A DNA stretch of 64,000 nucleotides, from NCBI RefSeq assembly GCF_016026235.1, contig NZ_CP065613.1. One strand, 5' to 3'. Of this stretch, positions 13,713 to 18,390 are shown piece by piece; position 1 is the stretch's first letter; every line of letters starts with the position of its first letter. Position numbers and translations under genes: made by a program. The notes below the pieces were generated by a model. That model made no database searches, was not told where the DNA came from, and was given only the letters and a program-made list of their open reading frames with translations. The stretch is from Escherichia coli (GTDB lineage: Bacteria; Pseudomonadota; Gammaproteobacteria; Enterobacterales; Enterobacteriaceae).

Positions 13713-15311
13713 ATGCAAAAAGCACAACGGATCATTAAAACCTATCGCCGTAATCGAATGATTGTTTGTACGATTTGCGCACTCGTTACGCTCGCTTCGA
13801 CCCTGAGCGTGCGATTTATTTCACAGCGTAACTTAAATCAACAACGGGTAGTACAATTCGCCAATCACGCTGTAGAAGAATTAGATAAAGTACTGCTTCC
13901 CCTACAGGCAGGTAGCGAAGTCTTGCTTCCGCTGATTGGTCTGCCCTGCTCTGTCGCCCATTTGCCATTACGTAAACAGGCGGCAAAACTCCAAACTGTG
14001 CGATCCATTGGCCTGGTGCAAGACGGCACACTTTATTGCTCCAGCATTTTTGGTTATCGCAATGTGCCCGTCGTGGACATTCTGGCTGAACTTCCTGCAC
14101 CGCAACCACTTTTACGCCTGACGACCGACCGTGTCCTGATTAAAGGCAGTCCGGTTTTGATTCAATGGACGCCTGCAGCGAGCAGTAGCAATGCTGGGGT
14201 CATGGAGATGATTAACATCGACTTACTGACGGCAATGCTGCTTGAGCCACAACTGCCGCAAATCAGTAGCGCCAGCCTGACGGTGGACAAACGGCATTTG
14301 CTCTATGGTAATGGGCTGGTAGATTCCCTTCCACAACCTGAAGACAATGAAAACTATCAGGTTTCTTCGCAACGCTTTCCTTTTACCATTAACGTTAATG
14401 GTCCGGGGGCTACGGCGCTGGCATGGCACTATCTTCCAACACAATTACCGCTGGCGGTGCTGCTAAGTTTACTGGTGGGCTACATCGCCTGGCTGGCGAC
14501 CGCTTACCGAATGAGCTTTTCCCGCGAAATCAATCTGGGCCTGGCGCAACATGAGTTCGAATTGTTCTGTCAGCCTTTGCTTAATGCGCGCAGCCAGCAA
14601 TGTATTGGTGTAGAGATTTTGCTGCGCTGGAACAATCCGCGTCAGGGCTGGATTTCACCGGATGTGTTTATTCCTATCGCGGAAGAACATCATTTAATTG
14701 TGCCACTAACCCGCTATGTGATGGCAGAAACCATTCGTCAGCGCCATGTTTTCCCGATGAGTAGTCAGTTTCATGTTGGCATTAACGTCGCACCCAGCCA
14801 TTTTCGCCGTGGTGTGCTGATAAAAGATCTCAATCAGTACTGGTTTAGCGCTCACCCGATTCAGCAACTGATCCTCGAAATCACCGAACGCGATGCCTTA
14901 CTGGATGTTGATTATCGGATTGCCCGCGAGCTACATCGTAAAAACGTCAAACTGGCGATTGATGACTTCGGCACCGGCAACAGTTCATTTTCCTGGCTTG
15001 AAACATTACGTCCTGACGTGCTGAAAATTGATAAGTCATTTACCGCAGCTATAGGTTCTGACGCGGTTAACTCGACGGTGACCGATATCATCATCGCGCT
15101 GGGGCAAAGACTGAATATTGAACTGGTGGCGGAGGGCGTGGAAACGCAAGAACAGGCGAAGTATTTGCGCCGTCATGGCGTGCATATTTTGCAAGGGTAT
15201 TTGTACGCACAGCCGATGCCGCTACGTGATTTTCCCAAATGGCTGGCGGGCAGCCAACCGCCGCCCGCCCGGCATAATGGACATATCACGCCCATTATGC
15301 CGTTACGTTAA
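13713..15311 (+). CDS. pdeD: c-di-GMP phosphodiesterase PdeD (YoaD), CSS-motif sensor plus EAL domain
   Basis: Recognised as YoaD; start taken at MQKAQRIIKTY inside the 542-aa track ORF. Confidence 0.85.
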   Translation: MQKAQRIIKTYRRNRMIVCTICALVTLASTLSVRFISQRNLNQQRVVQFANHAVEELDKVLLPLQAGSEVLLPLIGLPCSVAHLPLRKQAAKLQTVRSIGLVQDGTLYCSSIFGYRNVPVVDILAELPAPQPLLRLTTDRVLIKGSPVLIQWTPAASSSNAGVMEMINIDLLTAMLLEPQLPQISSASLTVDKRHLLYGNGLVDSLPQPEDNENYQVSSQRFPFTINVNGPGATALAWHYLPTQLPLAVLLSLLVGYIAWLATAYRMSFSREINLGLAQHEFELFCQPLLNARSQQCIGVEILLRWNNPRQGWISPDVFIPIAEEHHLIVPLTRYVMAETIRQRHVFPMSSQFHVGINVAPSHFRRGVLIKDLNQYWFSAHPIQQLILEITERDALLDVDYRIARELHRKNVKLAIDDFGTGNSSFSWLETLRPDVLKIDKSFTAAIGSDAVNSTVTDIIIALGQRLNIELVAEGVETQEQAKYLRRHGVHILQGYLYAQPMPLRDFPKWLAGSQPPPARHNGHITPIMPLR

Positions 15312-15377
15312 CGCTGATATGACTTTCCGTGTCAAACCGGAATCTCTAATTTTGACGATTTTCTTTTTAGGTTTAAT

Positions 15378-15562
15378 TCCCTGAGGGCGACGTAGCAGTA
15401 AATCCGACGGTGAATCACGCTGATATTCGCGGGTTGGATACCGCATTACAGAGGTCCGTCATATGAGCCTGCCACTTTCTTACGTCGCGAATCAGCTTTG
15501 TTCCGCCGTCGCCAAGCGCTAACGTGGGTTACTCTTGTACTGGGCTACGTCGCCTTCAGGGA
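15378..15562. repeat. 19-bp imperfect inverted repeat pair (18/19) in the 3' non-coding end of the IS110-family element
   Basis: TCCCTGAGGGCGACGTAGC at 15378..15396 and GCTACGTCGCCTTCAGGGA at 15544..15562. Confidence 0.7.
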
Positions 15563-15618
15563 ACTGGTTATTCTCATTTTTTATTTGTGACATTGTGGTT
15601 GTTGTGCGACAGACATTG

Positions 15619-16707
15619 CTATTCGGCCCATATCCCAGATAAAACCCGCCAGCTCACGTGCAACAGCAACAATTGTAATATTGACATTCTTTCCTTTGGC
15701 CTGAAGTTTTCGATACCTCTTACAAAGCCTGAGTTGAGCATCCCATGCTCTGTCAATGACGGGGCGGGGTAAATTTTCCTGCCTTTTTGTATTGCCGGAC
15801 TGATGCGTGCCGGATGACGGTAACTCCACGCTGCCTCGACCAATAGCTTTCTGGCATAGCTGTTTCCGGCTTTGGTAATGCTGCCCTGATGTCTGCTTCC
15901 ACCCGATGAATATTCTGATGGCGTGATACCAAACCATGACATCAGTTGTCGTGGATGTTCAAAACGGGTCAGATCACCCAGTTCAGAAATTAATCCAACC
16001 GCAGTAATAAACTGAATCCCTCGCATGGCTTGCAGCGCCTCTACTACCGGATACAGCCTCCATTCGGTAACGGCCTCCTTCAGGGCGGATTCCAGCCGTT
16101 CACATTGTGCCTGCCGGTCTTCTATTGTACGACGGTGTTCGTCAAAAGCTAATTGTCGCCAGGGACTTTCGAATGAGTATTTGCTGAGCCAGCGTCGGTG
16201 TGCAGGGCCCCAATCTGCTCGCCCGACATAATGGACCCCATGAACCAGAAGAAACGATTTCAGACGTTGCCTTGCATGCCGTAAATCATCGCGGGCAGAT
16301 GCCCATGCCCGGGCCAAATCCCGGAATGCCTCATCTTCAATGCCGGGTACGTAGACAGCAGAAAGATCTCCTGCACGCAGTGAACGCACAAGTCTGATGG
16401 CATCACGGCGATCGGTTTTAACCCGCTCCCCCGGTTTTTTCGGGATAAGTGAGGGGGCGCAGACCATGCAGTCAAAACCGGATTTCACCAGCCGACGATA
16501 AAGTCCATAACCACAGGGCCCCGCTTCATAAACGATACTGACCTGCGATGACTTTGACCTGAGACGTTTACAAAGATTCTGAATATCAGTAGGTGATGTG
16601 CCAATTTTACCCATCAGTTCAACAGGTTCTGAATTGATAGCATAAGCGACAGTAATCGATTCTTTGTGAACATCTAACCCGACGTACAATGTGTTATTGT
16701 TGTTCAT
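15619..16707 (-). CDS. IS110-family transposase (DEDD RuvC-like N-terminal domain, IS116/IS110/IS902 C-terminal domain)
   Basis: N-terminus MNNNNTLYVGLDVHKESITVAYA and C-terminal ITAVGLISELGD...GITPSEYSSGGS...KAGNSYARKLL motifs; start taken at M17 of the 378-aa track ORF. Confidence 0.8.
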   Translation of the reverse strand: MNNNNTLYVGLDVHKESITVAYAINSEPVELMGKIGTSPTDIQNLCKRLRSKSSQVSIVYEAGPCGYGLYRRLVKSGFDCMVCAPSLIPKKPGERVKTDRRDAIRLVRSLRAGDLSAVYVPGIEDEAFRDLARAWASARDDLRHARQRLKSFLLVHGVHYVGRADWGPAHRRWLSKYSFESPWRQLAFDEHRRTIEDRQAQCERLESALKEAVTEWRLYPVVEALQAMRGIQFITAVGLISELGDLTRFEHPRQLMSWFGITPSEYSSGGSRHQGSITKAGNSYARKLLVEAAWSYRHPARISPAIQKGRKIYPAPSLTEHGMLNSGFVRGIENFRPKERMSILQLLLLHVSWRVLSGIWAE

Positions 16708-16833
16708 GCTGGCCTCCGTGGTGGAAATACCGGGGTGTAGCAACAGCTCACCCATGCGGCTCTGACAACGATGTTAACCCGCGTTAAATATCCCACGTTG
16801 GCCAGCATCTGTCTCACGGAAAGTCATACTGCC

Positions 16834-18390
16834 TTACTCATCTTCATCGTGCGCCGGTTGCTCTTTAACAATGCGAACCAGATCAACACGATAATCATTG
16901 GCTTCAATGATGGTGATATGCAGTGGCCCTACATCAATCACATCGCCCACACGGGGAATGTGACCATTTGCCGAGATCACGAGGCCCGCGACCGTCGCGA
17001 TATCATCGTCATCGGCAAGGTGCTCAACATCAAGCGCCTGCTGCAAGGCATGCAAATCTGTACCGCCTTTTACCAGCCAGCCGTCACCATCAGTAATGAT
17101 TTCCGGCGTTTCGTCAGCGTCCGGGAATTCACCCGCAATGGCTTCCAGCACATCCAGCGGCGTGACCAGACCTTGTACCACACCAAACTCGTTGGTCACG
17201 ATAACAAAGCTCCCGCGAGCACGACGCAGCACGCCCAACAGGTTGATCGGATCGAGGGTTTCCGGGACGATAATCGCCGGAGACGCCGAAGCAATCGCCG
17301 CCACATCAACGCCCTCTTCCAGCGCCACCAGCAGTTCTTTAGCACGTACGATTCCGATGATTTCATCCAGTTCACCGCGACATACCGGGAACAGGCTGTG
17401 CGGTGAGGAGAGCAGCTGCTCGCGGATTTCATCTACCCCGAGATTAGCGTCAACCCAGCTTATTTCACCGCGCGGCGTCATGATCCCGCGCAGAGAACGC
17501 GACGCCAGCGTCAGTACGCCGTTAATCATGTAACGTTCTTCTTCGGCAAATGCACCTTCCGGGATCGGCATCGGCATCGGGTTATCGGCATCGTGCTGAA
17601 CATTGGCCTGACGTTTCCCGCCCATCAAACGCAGGATAGCATCGGCAGTACGCGCTCGCAGCGGCAAAGTCGACTGGTGACGAATAAAGTTGCGACGCGC
17701 AATCTGGTTAAACACTTCGATGATGATCGAGAAGCCAATCGCGGCATACAGGTAACCTTTCGGAATGTGGAAACCGAAACCTTCTGCCACCAGACTCAGA
17801 CCAATCATTAACAGGAAGCTCAGACAGAGCACCACCACCGTGGGGTGCTGGTTAACGAATCGCGTCAGCGGTTTGGATGCCAGCAACATAACCGCCATCG
17901 CAATCACTACCGCCGCCATCATCACCGGCAGATGGTTAACCATCCCTACTGCAGTAATTACCGCATCCAACGAGAAGACGGCGTCAAGGATGACAATCTG
18001 TGTGACGACCACCCAGAAACTGGCGTAGCCTTTACCGTGGCCGGAATCATGATCGCGGTTTTCCAGCCGTTCATGCAGTTCGGTTGTTGCTTTGAACAGC
18101 AAGAATATCCCCCCGAACAACATAATCAGGTCGCGTCCGGAGAAGGAGAAATCCATGACGGTAAATAGCGGTTTGGTCAGCGTGACCATCCATGAAATCA
18201 GCGACAGCAGCCCCAGACGCATAATCAGCGCCAGTGATAACCCCAGCAAACGCGCTTTATCGCGTTGTTTTGGCGGCAGTTTGTCAGCAAGAATGGCGAT
18301 GAAGACCAGGTTATCGATACCCAGCACAATTTCGAGAACAACAAGCGTGAGTAGCCCCGCCCAAATTGAGGGGTCCATTAAGAATTCCAT
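16834..18390 (-). CDS. yoaE: TerC-family membrane protein with CBS and CorC/HlyC domains, YoaE
   Basis: 518-aa ORF recognised as YoaE. Confidence 0.9.

Follow-up and report, generated by a model that had tools for sequence, protein, structure and literature searches.

The window analysed in this work is a 64,000-nucleotide (nt) stretch of Escherichia coli contig NZ_CP065613.1 (assembly GCF_016026235.1), and the region of interest in it is a copy of the insertion sequence (IS) ISSso6, an IS1111-type element of the IS110 family located at 15316–16832 on the minus strand, the transposase gene of which is preceded by a leader predicted to fold over its own ribosome site. In E. coli K-12 the genes pdeD and yoaE are convergent, with 3 base pairs (bp) between their stop codons, and ISSso6 is inserted exactly there in the window, interrupting the K-12 empty site ...CGTTAACGCT|TACTCATC..., which has a single CT, while in the window CT is found on both sides of the insert (15314–15315 and 16833–16834). 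With one copy of the CT core (AG in the transposase orientation) included, the insertion amounts to 1519 bp, and it is site-specific at this dinucleotide core without a longer target duplication; other ISSso6 copies have approximately 10 and 5–9 nt of flank in common. The element DNA is 99.7–99.9% identical over approximately 1533 bp to copies which RefSeq names 'IS110-like element ISSso6 family transposase'. In the window yoaE has the same direction as the transposase gene, with a stop codon that ends 1 nt before the IS, so that transcripts reading through from yoaE are expected to enter the element.

The transposase gene (15581–16707, minus strand) contains regions coding for the Pfam domains PF01548 (N-terminal, DEDD/RuvC-like, E = 2.4e-11) and PF02371 (E = 8.5e-24), and the motif GITPSEYSSG in its product fits the pattern G..P....SG (PMC11187229). 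Compared to an intact copy (L001), the gene is disrupted by a 1-nt deletion, one A being absent near 15789, which splits it into open reading frames at 15619–16755 and 15581–15937 and suggests that the window copy is a pseudogene or that the sequence possibly contains a homopolymer error. The start codon AUG lies at 16705–16707 (minus strand), 5 nt downstream of GGAGG (16713–16717, minus strand), which reads as a Shine-Dalgarno sequence. The preliminary description of this DNA had proposed the same ATG as the true start, in agreement with both the RefSeq annotation, where the equivalent base begins the coding sequence of the intact 375-amino-acid (aa) ISSso6 protein, and the N-terminus M-x-N/D-D-S-T-L-Y-V-G-L-D-V-H-K, which is kept in relatives at the same position behind GGAGG. 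An in-frame upstream ATG at 16755 was considered as an alternative start and rejected, as it is not conserved in relatives and the RefSeq start corresponds to 16707.

The start codon overlaps an inverted repeat, in which ATGCTGGCC at 16706–16714 has its exact reverse complement GGCCAGCAT at 16800–16808, 85 nt apart by sequence reading, with two start-codon bases inside the repeat (the codon reads CAT on the plus strand at 16705–16707). A 9-bp repeat overlapping the start codon had been reported earlier, and it was found at exactly these positions and with this spacing; the 9 bp are exact but understate the pairing, as beyond a 2 × 2 mismatch (16715–16716 versus 16798–16799) the positions 16717–16721 pair with 16793–16797, extending the helix to 9 + 5 bp. 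On the minus-strand RNA, the 9-bp part, designated P1, consists of the 5′ arm 5′-AUGCUGGCC-3′ (16800–16808), the family-conserved inner 7 nt of which are GCUGGCC (alignment columns 33–39), and the 3′ arm 5′-GGCCAGCAU-3′ (16706–16714, alignment columns 146–152), which extends from the last GG of the Shine-Dalgarno sequence through the spacer to the AU of AUG and is followed by the G completing the start codon (16707–16705). The 5-bp part, P1b, is formed by CGUGG (16793–16797) and CCACG (16717–16721), and AA makes up the internal loop between P1b and P1 on the 5′ side. Within the Shine-Dalgarno sequence G16717, which is the final G of CCACG, is paired in P1b, G16716 and A16715 are internal-loop bases, and G16714 and G16713 are paired in P1, so that three of the five bases of GGAGG (the first and the last two) are covered by the helix along with the 5-nt spacer and the AU of the start codon.

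The same 9 + 5 bp helix is the closing stem of both the minimum free energy (MFE) and the centroid structures predicted with RNAfold for 16690–16840 (minus strand), at −50.6 kcal/mol versus −40.6 ± 3.9 kcal/mol for shuffled sequences (z = −2.5). The bare 9-bp repeat taken alone is only mildly unusual and is weak evidence, because a perfect 9-mer covering −14 to +2 with its partner 20–120 nt upstream is expected at approximately 0.36% of arbitrarily chosen positions. There are 72 9-mer repeat seeds with loops of up to 120 nt in the window versus approximately 27 in shuffles, and approximately 40 distinct 9-bp repeats of such geometry occur within the window. These frequencies would suit a repeat arisen by chance, or a signal acting at the DNA level without any role in RNA, a reading rendered extremely improbable by the compensatory substitutions which maintain the pairing in relatives and are described below; moreover, at their spacing the arms are too far apart for a cruciform, and the right end of the element has no mirror copy of the 5′ arm.

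A protein search revealed a large family at 72–95% identity, mainly from Burkholderiaceae, and a 23-member alignment led to 80 loci fetched from species-representative genomes (48–81% identity, several phyla), with further relatives drawn from plasmids and E. coli genomes; overall, approximately 60 relatives with 49–100% transposase identity were compared, and three loci without a left end (L020, L036 and L064) were left out of the leader analysis. The left-end leaders of the relatives are clearly homologous, and the MAFFT alignment of 56 of them gave an RNAalifold consensus consisting of the long-range helix P1 (GCUGGCC/GGCCAGC), P1b, a hairpin P2 and a variable hairpin P3. Standard pairs occupy 96% of the cells of the consensus structure versus 21–46% when the 3′ partners are slid by 1–3 columns, 12 consensus pairs change on both sides, and these values were not reached in any of 500 column shuffles. 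Of the P1 cells in the 56 leaders, 99.2% are paired, with GC replaced by AU in 12 sequences and two more compensated positions, the columns of P1b covary (UA 30, CG 8, UG 5), and the GGAG of the Shine-Dalgarno sequence is invariant. The covariance model built from the alignment has one match in the window, at 16696–16833 on the minus strand (E ~2e-30), and in the covariance-model alignment of 63 leaders P1 is 99.1% paired, four of its seven pairs being changed on both sides. Because the pairing is kept with compensatory changes across the relatives, P1 is, on these comparative grounds, to be regarded as a selected single-strand RNA structure and not as a chance repeat.

The covariance model (R1) missed the most distant clade (L075, L076, L079, L081, L083, L086 and L087), six members of which were examined by single-sequence folding, L076 being left out. 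In more distant relatives the arms have different sequences, but they remain paired and the Shine-Dalgarno sequence remains covered, as seen with GUUAGCCUC/GAGGCUAAC in a Pseudoalteromonas element and CCCGUCUC/GAGACGGG in alphaproteobacterial elements, where the pairing ends at the start codon, as well as with GCUCGCCGUCCUUUG/AAAGGAGGCGAGC; in Elusimicrobiota there is a 15-pair helix with one interior mismatch, which also ends at the start codon. Among 34 diverse leaders there are 28 in which the single-sequence MFE structure pairs at least six ribosome-site bases to a segment located 22–44 nt from the IS end.

The two hairpins enclosed by P1/P1b differ in their conservation. P2 (16756–16782, minus strand) is paired in 97.9–98.4% of the cells, with compensatory change in four pairs, and contains invariant internal-loop bases (GCGGGUUA.C ... 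CAGAGCCGC), whereas in P3 (16733–16753, minus strand) all three consensus pairs change on both sides. The unpaired GGGUU and CAGAGCC of P2 are invariant across relatives with approximately 49–100% protein identity, which makes them more conserved than the coding sequence. Such conservation beyond that of the protein, together with the freely covarying P3, is what one would expect if the leader were a functional RNA domain serving in binding of the recombinase, the guide complex or a host factor, in processing or in stability, with P1 merely closing it and the ribosome-site overlap being either secondary or part of a regulated switch. It is also consistent with this that 50 bp of the ISEc11 left end suffice for DNA mobilisation (PMC11187229), so that by analogy the leader would be unneeded at the DNA level. 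We consider this reading improbable since the 3′ arm corresponds to the stretch from the Shine-Dalgarno sequence to AUG in every clade, even where the arms are wholly different, as selection for masking predicts; furthermore, an Rfam scan of 15000–17200 (E ≤ 1) gave no family matching the leader, and no partner was found for it, as the local alignment of the leader with the 3′ non-coding region, in which a guide able to open P1 was sought, yielded only the subterminal repeat, and full-length RNAduplex was uninformative. A narrower suggestion, that the P2 internal loops (GGGUU/CAGAGCC) bind the recombinase, the recombinase–guide complex or a host factor and thereby open or lock P1, is likewise doubtful; if true, it would make the synthesis of this RNA-guided recombinase depend on whether the element is integrated or circular and whether the guide is available.

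As for the transcripts which may carry the 5′ arm, minicircles of IS1111- and IS110-type elements combine a −35 hexamer from the right end with a −10 hexamer from the left end (PMC11187229, PMC12288879), and in ISEc11 this junction promoter, Pjunc (Prosseda et al. 2006, as cited in PMC11187229), was the only promoter seen (PMC11187229). In ISSso6 the predicted −35 hexamer is TTGACA at 15330–15335 (minus strand), which has its counterpart in the same place in the relatives, TTGAC(A) standing five bases before the terminal AGTCATATC in nearly all of those with a locatable right end (L004–L090); its role as a −35 element is suggested by analogy with ISEc11 (PMC11187229, PMC12288879). The predicted −10 hexamer, CAGTAT at 16826–16831 (minus strand), is nearly invariant in the alignment, where all left ends start with CAGTATGACT. 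When the ends are joined through the AG core, TTGACA and CAGTAT are separated by 17 nt, as counted from the sequence. A circle-junction promoter is predicted family-wide, with a putative start at approximately 16819 in ISSso6, some 11 nt upstream of the 5′ arm; in ISSso6 the arm itself lies 25–33 nt inside the IS, and in all relatives the distance from the −10 hexamer to the 5′ arm is 14–18 nt. A transcript beginning at this junction start would include the 5′ arm, and the stem is therefore expected on the element's own mRNA too. A promoter scan of 15200–17000 revealed no promoters in the left end on either strand, and a terminator scan of the same region gave no terminators past the stem; an attenuator reading was dropped, since there is no U-tract after the 3′ arm.

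Fold-back protection from outside promoters was reportedly described for IS10 and IS50 by Davis, Simons and Kleckner in 1985 and by Krebs and Reznikoff in 1986, and is said to be covered in the reviews by Mahillon and Chandler (1998) and by Nagy and Chandler (2004). In IS10 and IS50 the 5′ arm lies upstream of the native transcription start, and only read-through transcripts are blocked. The leader of ISSso6 resembles them in that pairing of a sequence near the IS end with the site where transposase translation starts would block initiation on the mRNA, and this geometry would fit a classical fold-back, where the element's own promoter fires between the arms, only outside transcripts carry the 5′ arm and the native ones are translated. 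A start between the arms could be provided by the weak sigma-70-like pair GAGACA (16814–16809) and GATATT (16792–16787), which are spaced by 17 nt and would give a start at approximately 16780, skipping both 5′ arms, yet this candidate matches only 8 of 12 positions, was unreported by the scan and is absent from relatives which keep P1. The promoter elements that are conserved are those of the junction promoter, with the predicted start upstream of the arm in all relatives, and ISEc11, as mentioned above, offers no second promoter, so a classical fold-back seems unlikely for ISSso6. A layout nearer to the classical one, confined to read-through transcripts, was observed in ISEc45 (L088, 530–620; L089), with a protein identity of approximately 45%: its leader is much shorter, and the 5′ arm (GUAGAUGAU), which is located at the very IS terminus or subterminal repeat, is paired to GUCAUC.AUG at the start codon.

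The opening cost of the ribosome site, computed as the ensemble free energy required to make the positions −15 to +5 single-stranded, is 14.9–15.3 kcal/mol for RNAs with the 5′ end inside yoaE (read-through), 15.9 kcal/mol for the predicted junction-promoter start and 6.3 kcal/mol when the 5′ end lies just past the 9-nt arm or past both arms. The low value for a transcript skipping both arms speaks for the classical fold-back. The 5′ arm is predicted to add approximately 9–10 kcal/mol to the opening of the ribosome site, and according to the same calculation masking would be equally strong for transcripts from the junction start and for read-through ones. In a set of 34 relatives, the median opening cost amounts to 12.6 kcal/mol with the arm versus 7.6 kcal/mol without it.

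Taken together with the covariation across the family, these costs support the sequestration of the start codon by the fold which was suggested in the preliminary description. The read-through invoked there from the yoaE side would indeed enter the element and be masked, and the scenario applies here, but not exclusively, because read-through from yoaE is expected and the element's own mRNA would be masked as well; no specificity for outside transcripts is supported. A filter for transcripts driven from outside, and with it the version of masking restricted to read-through, is unlikely in view of the predicted junction start upstream of the arm and the equal opening costs of 14.9–15.9 kcal/mol.

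The reading we favour, and hold to be probable, is that the repeat is helix P1 of a conserved folded leader which masks the ribosome site on all sense transcripts and so restrains the recombinase generally. The approximately 110-nt leader of the ISSso6 transposase would fold with P1/P1b closing P2 and P3, and in P1/P1b RNA from immediately inside the left subterminal repeat would be paired to the Shine-Dalgarno sequence, to the spacer and to the AU of the start codon, which would make translation initiation intrinsically poor. Since the 5′ arm is placed downstream of the predicted junction-promoter start, with only the IS end upstream of the arm, the mask would be present on every sense transcript reaching the gene, i.e. 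on both yoaE read-through and junction-promoter mRNA, in which ISSso6 would differ from IS10 and IS50, its own transcripts being blocked as well. Recombinase output would be kept low in general instead of foreign transcripts only being filtered out. While the pairing, its conservation backed by covariation and its constant overlap with the ribosome site are observed in the alignments and the energetic cost comes from the predicted folds, lowered translation in vivo and the position of the transcription start are inferred.

Several points weigh against general masking. The window copy is a frameshifted pseudogene, in which the stem regulates nothing at present. In several GC-rich relatives removal of the 5′ arm leaves the predicted opening cost nearly the same, as its place is taken by local structures. 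Simple masking leaves the highly conserved P2 motif unexplained. Finally, CAGTAT is a weak −10 hexamer, matching at 3 of 6 positions, and the transcription start near 16819 is a prediction.

The closest documented precedent for general masking appears to be ISPpu9 from Pseudomonas putida, which belongs to the same IS family: its structured 244-nt 5′ untranslated region (UTR) buries the ribosome-binding site of tnp, and mutations weakening the structure lead to 26-fold more translation (PMC8450116). In both elements the transposase's own mRNA leader folds over the ribosome-binding site, in ISSso6 as a predicted fold. Unlike ISSso6, ISPpu9 is a member of the IS110 group without subterminal repeats and with a strong native promoter, and its UTR also holds the bridge RNA (PMC8450116, PMC12288879), whereas in ISSso6 the leader is only approximately 110 nt long and the guide would be located in the 3′ region. 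The structure in ISPpu9 is opened by the antisense RNA Asr9, which is counteracted by the sense RNA Ssr9 (PMC8450116, PMC12288879); no convincing counterpart of either was found in ISSso6, where the promoter scan gave no antisense promoter near the leader. By eye, TTGTGA (16664–16669) and TACAAT (16685–16690), separated by 15 nt, can be recognised on the plus strand, antisense to the first transposase codons, but this is a weak candidate, as the spacer is too short and the pair is unconserved in GC-rich relatives and unreported by the scan.

The left end of ISSso6 comprises 125 nt versus approximately 265 nt (15316–15580; also counted as 268 nt) in the 3′ non-coding region, and both ends carry subterminal inverted repeats a few bp inside, the left one (TATGACTTTCCGTG, 16815–16828, minus strand) being an exact 14-bp inverse copy of the right one (15318–15331, minus strand). 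Subterminal inverted repeats, a 3′ seekRNA and the Pjunc promoter at the circle junction are features of IS1111-type elements as known from ISEc11 (PMC11187229), and ISSso6 is similar to them in its repeats, in the longer downstream non-coding region with target-matching segments, in the site-specific insertion at a dinucleotide core and in the location of the predicted −35 hexamer in the right end and the predicted −10 hexamer in the left end. It differs from ISEc11 in its target, approximately CGTTAACG-CT-TACTCAT versus GTGAAAATACTG, and in the transposase length of 375 versus 339 aa, and no leader structure masking the ribosome-binding site is described in the accounts of ISEc11 that were consulted (PMC11187229). 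A guide-like segment, GAGUAA-CCC-ACGUUAGCGCU, was located at 15515–15534 (minus strand) in the 3′ non-coding region, in agreement with its location in IS1111-type elements (PMC11187229); it corresponds to the left flank of the target as well as to the complement of the right one (with one mismatch), and donor-like AUAUGAC follows approximately 60 nt beyond it. This segment is likely to be the target-binding part of the ISSso6 seekRNA, or bridge RNA, judging by these matches.

In elements of the IS110 group the sequence coding for the guide precedes the gene (PMC11187229, PMC12288879), and the leader of ISSso6 contains a 7-mer, TTAACGC, matching the target, both of which would be in line with the left-end structure itself being the bridge or seek RNA guide. 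However, TTAACGC is part of the motif AACGCGGG, which is invariant in relatives inserting at different sites, while the longer non-coding region, with the segment matching both flanks and AUAUGAC, is the downstream one, and subterminal inverted repeats are a hallmark of the IS1111 type that accompanies a 3′ guide. The leader was rejected as the guide RNA, a role we regard as highly unlikely, its sole target match lying in family-invariant sequence and the true matches in the 3′ non-coding region.

It has long been known that insertion sequences restrain themselves through leader structures which mask the ribosome site of the transposase, and in ISSso6 the masking is probably of this ordinary kind, acting on all transcripts. 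The principle is not new, and what is added here is the covariation-supported leader fold of P1/P1b, P2 and P3, which apparently has been undescribed so far. A large clade of RNA-guided recombinases of the IS1111 type, with members in several bacterial phyla, has this fold in common; as such recombinases are under development as programmable genome-editing tools, the native leader would matter when they are expressed from natural sequence, and it would also be relevant to how excision first starts from a promoter-less integrated copy.

Outside the element, a near-perfect 15-bp hairpin with one mismatch was observed at 15270–15302 (plus strand), within the last codons of pdeD. It is located just past the yoaE stop codon in K-12, and in the window the IS puts 1.5 kilobases between the hairpin and yoaE; no U-tract follows it on either strand. 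The Rfam match of this hairpin to mir-2001 was rejected as a chance one (22 bits versus a threshold of 74).

Two kinds of relics of related left ends were also recognised in other E. coli genomes. The first, which is unannotated and lies at 2449–2589 of L006 from E. coli 118UI, shares the same 93-nt match with approximately 780 E. coli records; its transposase gene is cut after approximately six codons, in many genomes of the ST131/B2 type it has remnants of ISL3 and IS3 as neighbours, and the P1 arms of this decayed relic differ from those of ISSso6 at two compensated positions. The second, at 2499–2636 of L007 from E. coli LWY6 and in three similar genomes, scores 42 bits with the covariance model and adjoins a degraded pseudogene with a Mu transposase domain.

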